The notes under the pieces: generated by a model
Databases searched by the model: none
What the model was told of the DNA's origin: nothing
What the model saw: only the letters and a program-made list of their open reading frames with translations
Made by a program: the position numbers and the translations under genes
Part shown: piece by piece, positions 4,982-49,849 of the stretch
Position numbering within the stretch: the first letter of the stretch is position 1
Layout of the letters: each line of letters begins with the position of its first letter
Assembly: GCF_013122565.1 (NCBI RefSeq)
Contig: NZ_CP053258.1
Origin: Escherichia coli
Lineage (GTDB): Bacteria > Pseudomonadota > Gammaproteobacteria > Enterobacterales > Enterobacteriaceae
Direction: 5' to 3' (one strand)
DNA: 64,000 nt

Positions 4982-5833
4982 GTGTTAATTATCGAAACCC
5001 TGCCGCTGCTGCGTCAGCAAATTCGCCGCCTGCGTATGGAAGGCAAGCGCGTGGCGCTGGTGCCTACCATGGGTAACCTGCACGATGGCCATATGAAGCT
5101 AGTCGACGAAGCCAAAGCCCGCGCCGATGTGGTCGTCGTCAGTATTTTCGTTAACCCGATGCAGTTCGACCGCCCGGAAGATCTGGCTCGTTATCCACGG
5201 ACCTTGCAGGAGGACTGCGAGAAGCTAAACAAACGTAAAGTAGATTTAGTTTTCGCCCCTTCGGTAAAAGAGATCTACCCGAACGGTACAGAAACCCACA
5301 CCTATGTTGATGTTCCTGGTCTTTCCACCATGCTGGAAGGTGCCAGCCGTCCGGGACATTTTCGCGGCGTTTCGACTATTGTCAGCAAGCTGTTCAACCT
5401 GGTCCAGCCGGACATCGCCTGCTTCGGTGAAAAAGATTTTCAGCAACTGGCGCTGATCCGCAAAATGGTTGCTGATATGGGCTTTGATATTGAGATTGTC
5501 GGTGTGCCAATTATGCGCGCCAAAGACGGTCTGGCGCTGAGTTCCCGTAACGGTTATCTGACGGCGGAACAACGTAAAATTGCGCCCGGTCTGTACAAAG
5601 TTTTAAGTTCGATTGCCGACAAATTGCAGGCTGGCGAACGGGATCTCGATGAAATTATTGCTATTGCCGGGCAAGAACTGAATGAAAAAGGCTTCCGCGC
5701 CGATGATATTCAGATTCGCGATGCCGACACGTTGCTGGAAGTCTCTGAAACCAGCAAACGGGCAGTGATTCTGGTAGCCGCCTGGCTTGGCGATGCCCGC
5801 CTGATCGACAACAAAATAGTCGAACTGGCGTAA
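4982..5833 (+). CDS. panC: Pantothenate synthetase
   Basis: Recognised PanC ([18 protein letters not shown]...); GTG start 11 bp after panB. Confidence 0.95.
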
Positions 5834-5839
5834 TACTTA

Positions 5840-5875
5840 ACTGGCGCTACGGCTGATGGCGCCAGTTATTAATTT
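5840..5875 (+). terminator. Candidate intrinsic terminator after panC
   Basis: Inverted repeat ctggcgc...gcgccag (5841-5847 / 5859-5865) followed by T-rich tract, immediately after panC stop. Confidence 0.5.
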
Positions 5876-5928
5876 GCCCTACGTCATGGCGATGACGTCT
5901 GTAAGTGATTATTCATATCGCTGGCAAT

Positions 5929-6110
5929 TTAGTTAGAGTTAATTAGCTTATCAATCTCTGTAAGAGGTAAAGTTGTCACCTCTGCAACGTCTTCCCGAGA
6001 CATCCCTTTACTTAGAAAACGCTGGGCGAATTCCTGTCTTACCTTCTGGAGTTCCTCTTGATATCCCTTCTGAAATCCCTTCTCTTCAAACCACTGCGCC
6101 AACGTCTGCC
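5929..6110. repeat. Copy 1 of tandemly duplicated rpnC 3'-end (tail-encoding) segment
   Basis: About 85% nucleotide identity to 6207..6360 by eye, with 6-bp and 24-bp indels. Confidence 0.7.
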
Positions 6111-6138
6111 TGGTTTCTCTCCGTGTCTTTATTTCCAT
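5929..6138 (-). CDS. Orphan 69-aa ORF homologous to the C-terminal tail of RpnC (free-standing Rpn tail-domain-like small protein); coding status unproven
   Basis: ATG at 6136-6138 with AAGGGA upstream; protein ...TLAQWFEEKG...KGMSREDVAEVTTLPLTEIDKLINSN parallels RpnC tail ...TLAQWFEERG...KGMSREDVAEMANLPLAEIDKLIN; underlying DNA is a diverged tandem copy of the rpnC 3' end. Confidence 0.4.
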   Translation of the reverse strand: MEIKTRRETRQTLAQWFEEKGFQKGYQEELQKVRQEFAQRFLSKGMSREDVAEVTTLPLTEIDKLINSN

Positions 6139-6206
6139 AGGTTCCCTTAATTATCTGGTCAGTTAACAATAACAATTATCTGGCTATAACTGATGATGCA
6201 GACAAC

Positions 6207-6360
6207 TTAGTTAATCAGCTTATCAATCTCGGCAAGGGGTAAATTTGCCATCTCTGCAACGTCTTCCCGAGACATTCCTTTATTCAGAAGACGCAGGGCG
6301 AATTCTTGCCTTTCCTCCTGTCTTCCCCTCTCTTCAAACCACTGCGCCAGCGTCATCATA
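6207..6360. repeat. Copy 2 of tandemly duplicated tail-encoding segment (the native rpnC 3' end)
   Basis: Aligned by eye with 5929..6110 (shared ttagtta...cagcttatcaatctc...ctctgcaacgtcttcccgagacat...cgaattc...ctcttcaaaccactgcgcca). Confidence 0.7.
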
Positions 6361-7079
6361 GACTCCCCTCCCGTTTCCCTGTCTCTCAACACACTGTAAA
6401 ACAAATCCGCTTGTTCAGTATGACCGCGTTGCAGCATATAGTTTTGCATGGCAACTAACTGACTTCCGCTAGTGTACCCTTCGTCGATCAGCGTGACCAG
6501 TTGCTCCAGCAATAACATTAAGTCGCGCTGGCGAATATGTTTTTGCAGTAGTTCGAGAATCGCAATCCGCCGATGTTGCATGATTTCGTCATCCGGTGTG
6601 ATGGTGATATCCACCAGCGGGAAAGGACTGTTATAGACGCGTCGTGCCAGCTCCGGCGAGTAAAACATATCAAACCAGCACATTGAGAGCGGATAAGGTG
6701 TGGCCTCGCCCTGATAAAACAGTATCGGCACCACCAGCGGCAGCTTATCGTGATCCGCCTCCAGATGCCGGTGCATGGCAGCAATAGAATAACGCATCAT
6801 GCGAAAGGCCATTTTCTTATCCGGCTTGCTTTGGTGTTCAATCACAACATGCAGATAACCGGGATTGCCCTGCATTTGCACGGAATAGAGCACGTCCGTG
6901 CTGTGTCCTTTCAGGCTCTCTTCAATGAAACTCCCCGACTCTAAATGAAGCGTGTTGAGGTCACAAAGTTCGCGTAATTCCACTGGCAAATGTATCTCCA
7001 GAAAGTCGCGAGCCGTCTCCGCATGCATTAAAAATTGTTTAAATACCGCATCATGCGGTGTGGTACTCGGTGCATCCAT
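6207..7079 (-). CDS. rpnC: Recombination-promoting nuclease RpnC (YhgA-like, PD-(D/E)XK / transposase_31 family)
   Basis: Recognised YadD/RpnC-like protein; start set at MDAPSTTP (ATG 7077-7079); ORF-track start 7136 is an upstream in-frame alternative; internal in-frame Met-Met at 6354-6359 could start a 50-aa tail protein. Confidence 0.85.
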   Translation of the reverse strand: MDAPSTTPHDAVFKQFLMHAETARDFLEIHLPVELRELCDLNTLHLESGSFIEESLKGHSTDVLYSVQMQGNPGYLHVVIEHQSKPDKKMAFRMMRYSIAAMHRHLEADHDKLPLVVPILFYQGEATPYPLSMCWFDMFYSPELARRVYNSPFPLVDITITPDDEIMQHRRIAILELLQKHIRQRDLMLLLEQLVTLIDEGYTSGSQLVAMQNYMLQRGHTEQADLFYSVLRDRETGGESMMTLAQWFEERGRQEERQEFALRLLNKGMSREDVAEMANLPLAEIDKLIN

Positions 7080-7352
7080 CTTCCCTGCCTTCCGTGTTGT
7101 CTTGCGTGAAGGCAGTATCCAGTCAAGGTGTGCCATCGTCAGCCACCTCTTTAGTGTTTACCGAGCAGCGTTCAGAGAAATTTCAATTGGTTACAGGCGT
7201 TACATGGCACGCTTCGGCGCGGTACGCAAACTGCTGATGCAAATGCCGTCAGATGAGTAGACACTAAACAAAAATCGGGCAATACTGCGTGAGAATTTCC
7301 TCAAAGCAGGCACCGCCTGCTTCGTTAACGACAGGGTAGAAAGGTAGAAGTT

Positions 7353-7733
7353 ATGATTCGCACGATGCTGCAGGGCAAACTCCACCGCGTGAAAGTGACT
7401 CATGCGGACCTGCACTATGAAGGTTCTTGCGCCATTGACCAGGATTTTCTTGACGCAGCCGGTATTCTCGAAAACGAAGCCATTGATATCTGGAATGTCA
7501 CCAACGGCAAGCGTTTCTCCACTTATGCCATCGCGGCAGAACGCGGTTCGAGAATTATTTCTGTTAACGGTGCGGCGGCCCACTGCGCCAGCGTCGGCGA
7601 TATTGTCATCATCGCCAGCTTCGTTACCATGCCAGATGAAGAAGCTCGCACCTGGCGACCCAACGTCGCCTATTTTGAAGGCGACAATGAAATGAAACGT
7701 ACCGCGAAAGCGATTCCGGTACAGGTTGCTTGA
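7353..7733 (+). CDS. panD: Aspartate 1-decarboxylase
   Basis: Recognised PanD 126 aa ([30 protein letters not shown]...). Confidence 0.95.
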
Positions 7734-42290: not shown

Positions 42291-42384
<94 letters not shown>

Positions 42385-42801: not shown

Positions 42802-42830
42802 AAAAAAGGCGCAGAATCCTGCGCCTTTTA
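42802..42830 (-). terminator. Intrinsic terminator downstream of secA
   Basis: Minus-strand aaaaggcgcag-gatt-ctgcgcc followed by tttttt, between secA stop and mutT start. Confidence 0.7.
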
Positions 42831-42846
42831 CTTCAACTGTTAGCTT

Positions 42847-45552
42847 TTATTGCAGGCGACCATGGCACTGCTTGTATTTTTTACCAGAACCGCACGGGCA
42901 AGGATCGTTACGTCCTACTTTGCGTTCACCGGTTTGCGCCGCCAGTGCAGCTGCGGCTGCAGAGTCGTCATCCTGATGGCTAAGCTGCTGCATTTGCGCT
43001 AAACGCTCGGCTTCCATACGACGCTGTTGTTCCAGCTCCTCAACCTCTTCAGGCATACGTACCTGAACTTTGCTCAGCGTACTGATAACTTCATATTTCA
43101 ACGACTCCAGCATCGCTGCAAACATGGAGAACGATTCACGTTTGTATTCCTGCTTCGGATCTTTCTGTGCATAGCCACGCAGGTGGATACCCTGACGCAG
43201 ATAGTCCATCGCTGCCAGGTGCTCTTTCCACAGGGAGTCAAGCGTTTGCAGCATGACGCCTTTCTCGAAGTGACGCATCATCTCAGCACCAACCACTTCT
43301 TCTTTACGCTGATACACTTCGATGGACTGCGCCAGAATGCGCTCACGCAGCGTCTCTTCATGCAGTTCGGGTTCTTTATCCAGCCACTCAGCAATTGGTA
43401 AATCGAGGTCGAAATCGTTCTTCAGACGTTCCTGCAGCCCCGGAATATCCCACATTTCTTCCAGCGACTGTGGCGGAATGTAGGCATCAATGGTGGCTTT
43501 GAACACATCTTCACGAATGCTGTTGATGGTTTCGCTCACATCGCTGACATCCAGCAGTTCGTTACGCTGGGAGTAAATGGCGCGACGCTGATCGTTAGCC
43601 ACGTCATCATATTCCAGCAGTTGCTTACGAATGTCGAAGTTACGGCTTTCAACTTTACGCTGGGCGTTGGCAATCGCTTTGGTCACCCACGGGTGTTCAA
43701 TGGCTTCGCCTGGCTTCATACCCAGTTTACGCATCATGCCGGATACTCGGTCGGAAGCAAAAATACGCATCAGCGCATCTTCCATCGACAGGTAGAAACG
43801 GGAAGAACCAGCATCCCCCTGACGACCAGAACGACCGCGCAACTGGTTATCGATACGACGGGATTCGTGACGCTCGGTACCGATGATATGCAGGCCACCT
43901 GCTGCCAGTACCGCATCGTGACGTACCTGCCAGTCGGCTTTAATTTTTTCAATTTGCTCTGCGGTCGGATTTTCCAGCGCGGCAACTTCTGCCTGCCAGC
44001 TACCACCGAGCACAATATCTGTACCACGACCCGCCATGTTGGTCGCGATAGTCACCGCAGCCGGATAACCTGCCTGAGCAACAATCGCCGCTTCGTTGGC
44101 GTGGAATTTGGCGTTCAGGACATTGTGCTTAATACCGGCTTTGGTCAGTTCGTTTGACACCAGCTCCGATTTTTCGATGGAGATAGTACCCACCAGCACC
44201 GGCTGGCCTTTCGCAGTACGTTCTTTGATATCTTCAATGATCGCCTGAATTTTTTCCGCTTCAGTCATGTAGACCAGGTCCGGCAAATCTTTACGAATCA
44301 TTGGACGGTTGGTCGGAACAACGACGGTATCCAGTTTGTAGATGGAGCTAAATTCGAAAGCTTCGGTATCAGCAGTACCGGTCATCCCCGCCAGTTTTTC
44401 ATACAGACGGAAGTAGTTCTGGAAGGTGATCGAAGCCAGCGTTTGGTTTTCGTTCTGGATCTGCACACCTTCTTTCGCTTCCACAGCCTGGTGCAGACCA
44501 TCGGACCAGCGACGGCCCTGCATGGTACGACCGGTGTGTTCGTCAACGATGATAACTTCACCATCTTTAACGATGTAGTCGACGTCACGGGTAAACAGCG
44601 CATGAGCGCGCAGCGCCGCCGTTACGTGGTGCATCAGCATGATGTTGGCCGGAGAGTACAGAGACTCCCCTTCATCCATGATGCCCTCTTTCACCAGCAG
44701 TTCTTCAATCAGCACCAGACCACGTTCGGTCAGGTTCACCTGGCGAGATTTTTCGTCCACCGAGAAGTGGCCTTCGCCCTGGAAGGTTTCGGAGTCTTCT
44801 TTTTCCTGACGGATCAGGTGCGGAATAATTTTATTCACGCGTTTATACATTTCCGAGCTGTCTTCTGCCGGGCCAGAAATGATCAGCGGTGTACGCGCTT
44901 CATCGATCAGGATGGAGTCCACTTCGTCCACCAGCGCATAGTGCAGTTTACGCTGTACACGTTCTTCAGGACTGAACGCCATGTTGTCGCGCAGGTAGTC
45001 AAAGCCGTATTCGTTGTTCGTACCGTAAGTGATGTCAGCTGCGTAGGCTTCACGCTTTGCCGGTGCTGGCATGCCCGGCAGGTTGATACCGACAGTCAGG
45101 CCAAGGAATTCAAACAGTGGACGGTTGTTTTCGGCGTCACGTTGCGCCAGGTAGTCGTTGACGGTAACTACATGCACACCTTTACCGGTTAGTGCGTTCA
45201 GGTAAGCAGGCAGCGTTGCGGTCAGGGTTTTACCTTCACCGGTACGCATTTCGGCGATGCAGCGTTCGTTAAGAACCATACCGCCGAGTAACTGAACGTC
45301 GAAGTGACGCATACCAAAGACGCGCTTACTTGCCTCACGTACCACGGCGAAAGCTTCCGGGATCAGATTTTCCAGCACTTCGCCTTTTTCCAGACGCGCA
45401 CGAAACTCTGCGGTTTTCCCTTTCAGTTCTTCGTCGGAGAGTTTTTCCATCTCCGGTTCCATGGCATTGATGATGTTGACCACTTTGCGCATCCGGCGCA
45501 GGGTGCGATCGTTACGACTACCGAAAACTTTAGTTAATAATTTGATTAGCAT
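42847..45552 (-). CDS. secA: Preprotein translocase ATPase SecA
   Basis: Recognised SecA 901 aa ([26 protein letters not shown]…) with C-terminal zinc motif [14 protein letters not shown]. Confidence 0.97.
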
Positions 45553-47374: not shown

Positions 47375-48526
47375 TTAATCAGCTTGCTTACGCAGGAATG
47401 CTGGGATATCCAGATAATCCGGCTCTTTCGCAGTTTGCGGCGCATTGTCATTCACGACTTTAGCAACCGGCTTCTGCTCCTGGGTCAGCGGAGCCATCCC
47501 GTGCTGCTGGTAGCGATCCATCACTGGCTGCTGAACCTGCTTATTGGTCACCAGAGTGATTTCAGGACGTTTGTCCATGCCGATACCTGTCGCAACAACA
47601 GTTACGCGCAGCTCGTCATTCATATCCGGGTCAAGAGAAGTACCGATAACCACGGTCGCGTTGTCGGAAGCAAATGCACGGATGGTGTTACCTACCGTTT
47701 CGAACTCATCCAGACGCAGGTCGAAGCCCGCCGTGATGTTAACCAGCACGCCGCGCGCGCCAGACAGGTCGATATCTTCCAGCAGCGGAGAAGAGATAGC
47801 CATTTCAGCAGCTTCTTCCGCACGGTCTTCACCGCTCGCCACGCCAGAACCCATCATTGCGTAGCCCATTTCAGACATTACGGTGCGTACGTCTGCGAAG
47901 TCCACGTTCATCAAACCCGGACGAGTAATCAGTTCAGCGATACCTTGCACAGCGCCTTTCAGTACATCGTTCGCTGCGCCAAACGCATCCAGCAGGGAGA
48001 TACCGCGGCCCAGAACTTTCAGCAGTTTGTCGTTCGGGATAGTGATCAGAGAGTCCACATGCTTGGACAGTTCAGTGATCCCCTGCTCCGCGAATGCCAT
48101 ACGCTTCTTGCCTTCAAAGTTGAAAGGCTTAGTGACGACAGCAACGGTCAGGATACCCAAATCTTTTGCCACTTCAGCGACGACTGGTGCTGCCCCTGTA
48201 CCGGTACCACCACCCATACCCGCAGCAATAAAGACCATGTCTGCACCTTCCAGCGCCGCACGCAATGCATCGCGATCCTCATCAGCCGCATTGCGGCCAA
48301 CTTCTGGATTAGCGCCAGCGCCCAGTCCTTTGGTGATACCGCTACCGATTTGAATCGTCTGTCCAACCGCTGTTTTACGCAGCGCTTGTGCATCGGTATT
48401 TACCGCGAAGAATTCAACACCTTCAATGCGCTCGCGCACCATGTGTTCAACAGCATTACCGCCGCCGCCGCCGACGCCGATGACTTTAATCACCGCGTCA
48501 TTGGTAAGTTCCATTGGTTCAAACAT
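47375..48526 (-). CDS. ftsZ: Cell division GTPase FtsZ
   Basis: Recognised FtsZ 383 aa; tubulin signature GGGTGTG. Confidence 0.97.
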
Positions 48527-48586
48527 AGTTTCTCTCCGATTTGTGCCTGTCGCCTGAGGCCGTAATCATCGTCGGCCTCATAAAAA

Positions 48587-49849
48587 TTAAAACTCTTTTC
48601 GCAGCCAACTATTGAGTCGCTTGATCCACGAGCCAACTGATGCTGTAACACGTTTTTCTACTTCAGCTTCACCGTTAAGATGTGACTCTTTCCCATAGTG
48701 AAGCAATCCCACCGCCGTCGAATAATACGGCTCCTGAGCATAATCCGTTAAACCGGTAATGTTCAGCGGCGCGCCGATACGCACTTGCGTATGAAACACG
48801 CGCTGAGCACAGGCTGCAAGACCTTCGATCTGCGCTGCGCCACCGGTTAATACAATGCCTGCCGCCAGGTGATGTTTAACCCCTTGTTGGCGAAGCTTTT
48901 CCTGCAACTGCAATATCTCTTCGTTGACCAGGTTGAGCAGCTCGGTATAGCGCGGCTCGATCACCTCTGCCAGGGTCTGACGTTGCAGACTCCGCGGCGG
49001 ACGACCGCCTACGCTCGGCACTTCCACGCTCTCATCTTTTCCAACGATGGAACCCAGCGCACAACCGTGGCGAACTTTAATCGCTTCGGCGTCGCTTGGC
49101 GGCGTGCCAAAGGCGTAAGCGATATCACTGGTCACGACATTGCCAGCATAAGGAATTACCTTAGTGTGGCGCAATGCCCCACCGGTATAAACGGCGATAT
49201 CCATTGTACCACCACCGATATCGACGACGCAGACACCCAGTTCACGTTCATCTTCCGTCAATACCGAATAACTTGATGCCAGTCCGGCAAATATCAGTTG
49301 GTCAACTTTCAGCCCACAACGTTCAACCGCTTTGACGATGTTTTTCGCCATATCGTTGTGACATGTGATCAGGTGCACTTTTGCCTGCATCCGCACGCCC
49401 GAAAGTCCTACCGGATTCTTGATCCCTTCCTGATAGTCAATCGCATACTCTTGCGGGATCACATGCAGCACACGATGCTCATCGCGCACACGCACCGATT
49501 TCGCGGTATGGACGACGTTTTCCACATCTTCTTGCGTCACTTCTTCTTCAGAAATAGGCACCATACCAATTTCATTCTGGCAGCTGATGTGCTTACCAGA
49601 AAGCGCCAGATATACCGAAGAGATCTGACAATCTGCCATCAATTCTGCCTGGTCAATGGCACGTTGTACGCACTTGACCACGGATTCGAGGTCGTTCACC
49701 CCGCCTTTATCCATACCACGCGACGGGCAGCTGCCCACGCCAATGATATTGACCATACCGTCGGGCAGAACTTCCCCTACTAAAGCGGCAACCTTCGCGG
49801 TACCAATCTCCAGTCCTACTACCAGTTTTCTGTCCGTCGCCTTGATCAT
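48587..49849 (-). CDS. ftsA: Cell division protein FtsA (actin-like ATPase)
   Basis: Recognised FtsA 420 aa ([27 protein letters not shown]…). Confidence 0.97.

Follow-up and report, generated by a model that had tools for sequence, protein, structure and literature searches.

The closest described systems are the rpn genes of Escherichia coli K-12. RpnA has been shown in vitro to be a Mg-dependent DNA endonuclease, and overexpression of K-12 RpnC in vivo causes toxicity and SOS induction (Kingston et al. 2017, PMC5350276). Full-length RpnL proteins are toxic and are blocked by the small RpnS proteins (Zhong et al. 2023, PMC10400941). An initiation signal, SPA-tagged small proteins and internal transcription start sites, the latter mapped by dRNA-seq, were reported for all five K-12 rpn genes, rpnC included, and the translation of RpnC_S was detected by Onc112 and retapamulin ribosome profiling as well as by SPA tagging (PMC10400941). 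In a dinD-lacZ assay, K-12 RpnC_S neutralises the long RpnC protein (PMC10400941, Fig. 4D), and this neutralisation is abolished when one extra four-residue repeat is placed on one RpnC partner only (PMC10400941). The same paper reported the repeat variation of the Rpn tail and demonstrated phage defence with RpnP2, an Rpn encoded on a plasmid, and not with the chromosomal RpnC.

The insertion of rpnC between panC and panD was described by Kingston et al. (PMC5350276), who also traced downstream ORFs to duplicated C-terminal sequence of rpnC (Text S1), and rpnCSs is shown in Fig. 2I of PMC10400941. The insertion, RpnC_S and rpnC_Ss are hence already known for rpnC from publications of 2017 and 2023 (PMC5350276, PMC10400941). 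Here we compare with them an E. coli locus found in the window, by which we mean the whole 64,000-nucleotide stretch of contig NZ_CP053258.1 that was analysed. We are highly confident that the region is the rpnC (yadD) locus, in which three parts form a toxin-antitoxin and candidate phage-defence module, and that it represents an old insertion in the short panC/panD spacer.

The ORF list holds a 309-codon frame with an ATG start at 6207-7136 on the minus strand, flanked by panC and panD, which agrees with an earlier note on this DNA that had placed rpnC between these genes on the opposite strand. Further out, panB lies upstream and yadE downstream. Three proteins, and not one, are encoded in the locus; the coordinates of its parts are collected in Table 1.

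Table 1. Parts of the rpnC locus, in positions of the window.
Feature	Coordinates	Strand	Basis
panC	4982-5833	+	ORF list
G+C-rich 12-pair hairpin in the convergent panC/rpnC_Ss gap	5838..5868	+	T-rich tail on the + strand
rpnC_Ss, free-standing 69-aa RpnC-tail paralogue with its own ATG	5929..6138	-	ORF list and tail homology
RpnC_Ss repeat region KGFQ-KGYQ-EELQ-KVRQ (four repeats)	6034..6081	-	
rpnC/rpnC_Ss spacer	6139..6206	-	10-nt direct repeat CCAGATAATT (6183-6174, 6158-6149) and rpnC_Ss SD AAGGGA
rpnC CDS, full-length RpnC_L, 290 aa + stop	6207..7079	-	PF04754, TIGR01784, K-12 identity, PGAP start
rpnC_S, intragenic in-frame 50-aa tail protein (antitoxin, by analogy with K-12)	6207..6359	-	ATGATG 6359-6354
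RpnC tail repeat stretch	6306..6329	-	WFEE-to-QEF length variation across E. coli alleles
Shine-Dalgarno (SD) of the internal start, GGGAGGGGAG	6363..6372	-	Purine-rich; kept in diverged orthologues
19-codon in-frame extension from ATG 7136	7080..7136	-	Judged 5' leader/promoter DNA, noncoding
Predicted rpnC promoter: CTGACG (7142-7137), 17-nt spacer, GATACT (7119-7114)	7114..7142	-	Read from the sequence; putative
Ancestral panC-panD intergenic block upstream of panD	7256..7352	+	TAGACA-17-AATACT (7258-7286) and hairpin 7304-7322
panD	7353-7733	+	ORF list

Gene identity and the start of full-length RpnC

The Pfam family PF04754 (Transposase_31/YhgA-like) spans residues 26-226 of the 309-aa ORF (E 3.3e-87, model positions 1-201 of 203), and the NCBIfam profile of the Rpn family, TIGR01784, gave 271.5 bits against a cut-off of 52.1. 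The NCBIfam RpnA equivalog remained below its cut-off (316 versus 583), as expected since RpnC is a paralogue. Counted from the 7079 start, 241 of the 242 N-terminal residues, which make up the nuclease domain, are identical to those of K-12 RpnC. The catalytic-type residues D10, D62, E81, Q83 and R93 and a PDDE at 162-165 are all present and match in order D11, D63, E82, Q84, R94 and D165 of RpnA, for which Kingston et al. listed the residues required for activity (PMC5350276); the one-residue offset between the two proteins was taken from the RpnA profile alignment and not from a pairwise alignment. The rpnC segment was matched in 5424 of 5426 complete E. coli genomes, nearly always annotated as rpnC. 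Given the near-identity with K-12, we infer that RpnC_L is a PD-(D/E)XK-type Rpn/YhgA-like nuclease that would act as a toxin.

No model of PADLOC-DB v2 (2023) matched RpnC or RpnC_S, which has no bearing on function since this library predates or omits Rpn, and RpnC_Ss gave a marginal RmrA match (E 5e-4) across its HTH-like tail. Sequence searches of the PDB with full RpnC and RpnC_Ss returned no useful match, the sole one being a designed helical repeat with a shared HTH-like motif.

The earlier note had considered the true N-terminus ambiguous between 7079 and 7136, since both codons are ATG in this allele. A start at 7136 would yield a protein of 309 aa whose 19-residue extension is genuine in this strain: the codon is joined to the gene by an uninterrupted reading frame here and in two of the compared alleles (L001 and L003), and a near-consensus SD, AGAGGTGG (GAGGTG), lies 7 nt upstream, with both sequence and spacing better than at 7079. 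However, ATG 7136 is missing from K-12 and from 8 of 10 further Escherichia alleles, the codon being ATA in K-12, ACG in L004-L007, ACT in L009, GCG in E. albertii and ACA in L011. ATG 7079, on the other hand, is invariant among the alleles, and the Pseudocitrobacter and Salmonella orthologues (57-62% identity) start at the equivalent site. The family profiles (PF04754 and TIGR01784) begin 5-7 residues past Met 7079, and PGAP chose 7079 in strain 48, the best match at 99.3% identity, as well as in all further alleles retrieved. Moreover, ATG 7136 sits within the 17-nt spacer of the CTGACG/GATACT pair, and if this pair is a -35/-10 promoter the codon would be absent from the mRNA. On these four grounds we favour ATG 7079 as the N-terminus of RpnC, which resolves the ambiguity, and regard a genuine start at 7136 as quite unlikely.

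Both hexamers of the pair are kept in Escherichia, Pseudocitrobacter and Salmonella diarizonae despite the 57-62% identity. The predicted rpnC promoter scores 8/12, which is under the threshold of the scan, and the default scan found neither this promoter nor an internal one. When the scan was relaxed, the best internal candidate was TGGTCA-17-TACACT at 6499-6471, also a weak 8/12. The rpnC promoter positions given here are thus putative ones, deduced from sequence.

The insertion between panC and panD

The synteny comparison with Enterobacteriaceae lacking rpnC that the earlier note had suggested could be run, and it defined both boundaries of the insertion. We fetched 80 panC loci, one genome per species, and located panB, panC, panD, yadE and any rpn in each of them; 78 had both panC and panD. 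The two genes are adjacent in most Enterobacteriaceae, with a gap of 31-260 bp and no rpn in 70 of the 78 loci. Three groups carry an rpn gene in the gap: Escherichia, with L009-L011, among them E. albertii and another species of the genus; Pseudocitrobacter, with 61-62% protein identity for L012 and L015; and S. enterica subsp. diarizonae, with 57%. A further rpn-bearing locus, L008, lies on a partial contig, and S. enterica subsp. arizonae has a panC-panD gap of 415 bp with a tail remnant only.

At the empty sites PanC ends in ...LAQ, and the TAG that stops it doubles as the first three bases of TAGACA; this -35-like hexamer belongs to a conserved TAGACA-17-AATACT block that runs to the panD start. 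At every occupied site PanC is one codon shorter and stops with TAA or TGA, and a CTGGCGC...GCGCCAG hairpin follows at once; its position here is shared by the copies of Pseudocitrobacter and Salmonella. With its T-rich tail on the + strand, the hairpin of the present locus is probably the panC terminator. The TAGACA block resumes at 7256, which is the right-hand edge of the insertion. From the shifted PanC end and the resumption of this block, the inserted DNA extends over about 5831-7255. Since panD kept the promoter-like block, the splitting of the pathway would be harmless. The G+C content is 43-45% across the tail copies versus 50-57% in the panBC flanks.

For the panD leader, alifold with a global alignment of 60 genera-level sequences gave no consensus structure, the alignment being too divergent; compensatory changes in the panD-leader hairpin were read by eye in an alignable subset.

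The earlier note had described Rpn genes as presumably mobile by horizontal transfer though lacking inverted repeats. We found no terminal inverted repeats at the junctions, the only inverted arms, of 15-20 nt with 75-80% complementarity, being elsewhere, nor were any bases duplicated at either junction as a target-site duplication. Mobility is overstated for this locus, as rpnC is fixed in E. coli (5424/5426). This fixation, together with the presence of rpnC in E. albertii and in another Escherichia species (L010 and L011), indicates that the insertion predates E. coli. One could still imagine that rpnC is mobile and active, as a gene for a transposase or a homing-type nuclease, and that it entered the panC/panD gap by itself only recently: 'putative transposase' is a common annotation of Rpn genes, the same site holds an rpn in three genera with a patchy distribution, and Kingston et al. 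argued for two independent insertions there (PMC5350276). We consider this very unlikely in view of the missing inverted repeats and target-site duplication and of the fixation of rpnC in E. coli and its occurrence in the other Escherichia, and Zhong et al. found no evidence of autonomous transposition (PMC10400941). In addition, the junctions, the hairpin behind panC and the rpn promoter-like hexamers are common to the Escherichia, Pseudocitrobacter and Salmonella copies, which fits one old insertion, spread or lost through recombination of homologous flanks, no less well than repeated homing.

Kingston et al. favour two independent insertions at panC-panD and list a single insertion as the alternative (PMC5350276). 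As both junctions are common to every occupied lineage, we do not take two insertions to be the sole reading. A single old insertion that was moved or lost through homologous recombination in the flanks would explain the sequences at least as well as two.

The internal product RpnC_S and the downstream gene rpnC_Ss

The internal ATGATG lies in the rpnC frame just behind the purine-rich SD GGGAGGGGAG and opens a 50-aa product, MMTLAQWFEERGRQEERQEFALRLLNKGMSREDVAEMANLPLAEIDKLIN. The in-frame Met-Met and the 50-aa tail reported in the earlier note held up in coordinates and translation, and so did its suggestion of a gene within a gene, for the internal Met-Met is the published start of RpnC_S (PMC10400941) in a site that is nearly identical to that of K-12. 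An SD and an ATG occur at the same position in the same-locus rpn orthologues of 57-62% protein identity, in Pseudocitrobacter as aaaggagaagaagATG (AAGGAG...ATG) and in S. enterica subsp. diarizonae as gcaggaggaatctATGATG (AGGAGG...ATGATG). Because the position is kept in these orthologues even though the residues encoded around the start differ between them, the internal SD and ATG are conserved beyond chance. That the Met-Met consists of two ordinary methionines without significance as a start, so that this allele makes no separate tail protein, seems to us extremely improbable: it is true that the expression evidence comes from the K-12 allele and not from that of this strain, and that no strong internal sigma-70 promoter was predicted, but the start is conserved as just described and the sequence around it is that of K-12, where the translation of RpnC_S has been shown (PMC10400941). 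The identity with K-12 is 205/207 nt over the 201 nt upstream plus the ATGATG, so that the K-12 data on RpnC_S can be transferred to this allele. By analogy with the near-identical K-12 allele, then, the internal transcription start, the production of RpnC_S and its antitoxin role, the toxicity of the long protein, its neutralisation and the repeat specificity would all apply here.

Among E. coli alleles the stretch between WFEE and QEF is 7 to 35 residues long and changes by four residues at a time, with 2 to 9 repeat units, in agreement with the variation described in PMC10400941. The present allele has the shortest form sampled, with the two repeats RGRQ-EERQ.

Directly downstream of rpnC and on the same strand lies rpnC_Ss, which was absent from the earlier note. 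It contains copies of the rpnC tail of 112 nt at 86% identity and of 51 nt at 80%, and its protein copies this tail from TLAQWFEE to the end, behind a unique N-terminus (MEIKTRRETRQ). RpnC_Ss matched C-terminal positions 213-273 of the TIGR01784 profile (E 2.8e-8). The Pfam search returned insignificant matches only, without PF14261 (DUF4351), a domain that annotates separate RpnS genes in some species only (PMC10400941); as the paper says 'in some species', its absence from RpnC_Ss breaks no strict requirement. With a 121-nt probe made of the spacer and the unique N-terminus, the rpnC_Ss junction was found in 1555 of 5426 E. coli genomes (29%), always on the chromosome. In other genomes the gene is annotated as 'RpnC/YadD family protein' or as 'hypothetical protein'. 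No terminator-like site was predicted between rpnC and rpnC_Ss, and a co-transcription of rpnC_Ss with rpnC/rpnC_S is therefore plausible.

The repeat region of RpnC_Ss is 11, 15 or 19 residues long, versus 7, 23, 27, 31 or 35 in the adjacent RpnC tail, and the two lengths were unequal in all 18 Ss-bearing loci sampled, a partly clonal set of about 12 distinct allele pairs; here four repeats in RpnC_Ss stand against two in the neighbouring tail. The main text of PMC10400941, supplement aside, does not discuss this mismatch, and its consistency may be a new detail. By the one-repeat rule of specificity (PMC10400941), RpnC_Ss would not be expected to neutralise the RpnC next to it. Rather than a redundant antidote, it could be a silent donor cassette, through which recombination would switch the specificity of the toxin/antitoxin tail, or an antidote to foreign RpnC alleles that come in by transfer, an idea that we put forward tentatively and hold to be rather unlikely as it stands. 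A duller account is that equal-length copies recombine and delete each other, which might leave only mismatched pairs behind.

The gene might also be a functionless, decaying remnant of the duplication. It is called a partial pseudogene by PGAP in some genomes, is missing from about 71% of E. coli genomes, has been replaced by an IS3 element in one locus (L098), and its product has no Pfam match. We find such a decay possible but doubtful, however, since rpnC_Ss is intact with its ATG and SD in 18/18 of the Ss-bearing loci sampled. Its repeats vary by multiples of four residues and QEF is lost in some alleles; that the frame nevertheless stays open suggests selection on the protein. In addition, the analogous RpnE_Ss (YpaA) is detectably made in K-12 (PMC10400941).

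In K-12 the body of the tail resembles the rpnC tail of the present locus, while the last two codons and the downstream DNA are collinear with the end of rpnC_Ss. The K-12 allele as a simple fusion of an rpnC N-terminal domain with rpnC_Ss was not adopted. As far as the sequences go, the single copy of K-12 could be ancestral or could have arisen by a deletion between two copies.

Proposed working and comparison with known systems

We propose that RpnC_L, the DNA-cutting PD-(D/E)XK endonuclease, would be toxic if unopposed, and that a separate shorter transcript with the internal ribosome-binding site would allow translation from the ATGATG to supply RpnC_S in excess. RpnC_S, identical to the C-terminal tail of RpnC_L, would bind this tail through the helix of four-residue repeats and block the nuclease, a pairing that would require an equal number of repeats on both partners. 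For K-12, such steps have been demonstrated with RpnC, RpnA and RpnB. An unspecified trigger, for which the literature suggests a phage factor, may then free RpnC_L. The duplicated tail gene rpnC_Ss would add another small tail protein, whose repeats differ in number, both its role and its co-transcription being conjectural. The insertion itself would have provided panC with a new stop codon and a terminator hairpin and left panD its own promoter block, so that pantothenate synthesis could go on undisturbed.

It is interesting biology that the antidote is encoded in frame within the toxin gene itself and that the partner is chosen by a repeat-length code. For annotation, the value lies in the start at 7079 and in recognising the small downstream ORF, often called 'hypothetical' or a pseudogene, as a real member of the family. 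That the repeats of RpnC_Ss and of the adjacent RpnC tail consistently differ in number offers a cheap, testable lead on the purpose of the second copy.

The K-12 RpnC/RpnC_S pair (PMC5350276, PMC10400941) has the same locus and panC/panD flanks; its internal SD and ATGATG are identical to those found here, and its tail is likewise built of WFEE, four-residue repeats and QEFA.R.L.KGMSREDVAEMANLPLAEIDK. It differs in having four KGIE-type repeats and a small protein of 60 aa, against two RGRQ/EERQ-type repeats and a 50-aa RpnC_S here, and its C-terminus reads ...DKVINLI instead of ...DKLIN. K-12 also lacks the downstream rpnC_Ss and has ATA at 7136 where this allele has ATG. As for the second copy, rpnC_Ss and rpnE_Ss (ypaA; PMC10400941, Fig. 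2H-I) are both small ORFs immediately downstream on the same strand, with homology to the tail of their own gene and variable four-residue repeats, and are missing from part of the strains (rpnC_Ss is present in 29% of complete E. coli genomes), whereas expression has been demonstrated for RpnE_Ss only.

Compared with insertion sequences and the PD-(D/E)XK TnsA-type components of transposases, rpnC is likewise a single-gene insertion, patchy across genera and labelled 'putative transposase', but it is fixed in the species and has neither inverted repeats, nor a target-site duplication, nor evidence of transposition. The system shares with the type II toxin-antitoxins a protein antitoxin that binds and neutralises the protein toxin of the same locus and is reportedly the more abundant of the two. 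In contrast to these, the Rpn antitoxin is an in-frame internal product identical to the C-terminal domain of the toxin, in place of a separate upstream gene, and specificity is achieved through a repeat-length code.

The panD leader

Many genera of Enterobacteriaceae keep the block of the panD leader that opens with TAGACA at the right-hand edge of the rpnC insertion and extends to AAAATCGGGCAATACTGC, as was seen when the window was compared with loci L009 to L087. In the same comparison, the stem of the panD-leader hairpin varied from genus to genus by compensatory changes, such as AAGCUGAU/AUCAGCUU, AAGCGGAU/GUCCGCUU and GAGCGGGG/CCCCGCUC. On its 3′ side, the hairpin has a U-rich run. Since the hairpin lies about 45 nt past the panC stop in genomes where no rpn gene separates panC from panD, its position suggests that it may be a panBC terminator located within the panD leader. 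A second small hairpin, GGGCA-AUAC-UGCCC, is possible in this leader and would enclose the -10-like hexamer.

Features of the window, with coordinates and strand
Feature	Coordinates	Strand	Remark
panD leader, holding the TAGACA...AAAATCGGGCAATACTGC block	7256-7352	+	panD leader
panD-leader hairpin	7304-7322	+	AAGCAGG/CCTGCTT stem, 3′ of TAGACA block
10-nt direct repeat CCAGATAATT, two copies	6183-6174 and 6158-6149	-	rpnC/rpnC_Ss spacer, 25 nt apart
tp2 sRNA	30916-31029	+	Rfam match
naRNA4 sRNA	42304-42381	-	Rfam match
STnc40 sRNA	42802-42871	-	Rfam match
PssrA sRNA	48518-48607	-	Rfam match

Allele variation in rpnC and its tail copy

In most strains (the window, L004 and L006 among them), the rpnC tail carries RQEV-type repeats and the free-standing tail copy rpnC_Ss those of the KGFQ type, whereas L093 and L096 show the reverse, with KGIE-type repeats in rpnC and RQ(A/E)V-type repeats in rpnC_Ss. 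Because the repeat types are oppositely placed in different strains, these sequences hint at exchange between the two copies. In the spacer that separates them, both copies of the CCAGATAATT direct repeat contain a GATAAT -10-like hexamer; the repeat could be a relic of the duplication junction or a binding site.

The rpnC allele of E. coli E69 (L009, 4950-5771) encodes 274 aa and has lost 24 residues internally ahead of the tail, yet the internal SD/ATGATG start and the tail are retained despite this deletion. In E. coli AF10 (L098, 135-1289; NZ_OZ546911.1), an IS3-family element lies immediately downstream of rpnC, at the position expected for rpnC_Ss. A 4.3-kb contig (CALXDF010000219.1) with the E. 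coli arrangement panB-panC-rpnC_Ss-rpnC, at 99% identity, was assigned to a MAG labelled Oscillospiraceae, which is almost certainly bin contamination.

The remainder of the window

The sRNA families tabulated are Rfam matches at the gathering threshold, and no tRNA genes were found within the 64,000-nt window. Elsewhere the window looks to be unremarkable E. coli sequence from 2-3 min on the K-12 map, apparently beginning in fimbrial genes and passing at its far end into a long same-strand gene cluster.

An rpn remnant in Salmonella

In Salmonella enterica subsp. arizonae (L029, 4850-5270), the panC-panD gap measures 415 bp and its sole rpn content is a tail remnant on the minus strand, consisting of a 29-aa ORF, MLECGMTREAAAQITTLTDDEIGQIIRWR, and a frameshifted part upstream. 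The nuclease domain has been lost by deletion, with the antitoxin-like end remaining. In contrast to arizonae, where only this remnant is found, its sister subsp. diarizonae (L034) has retained a full rpn of 296 aa.
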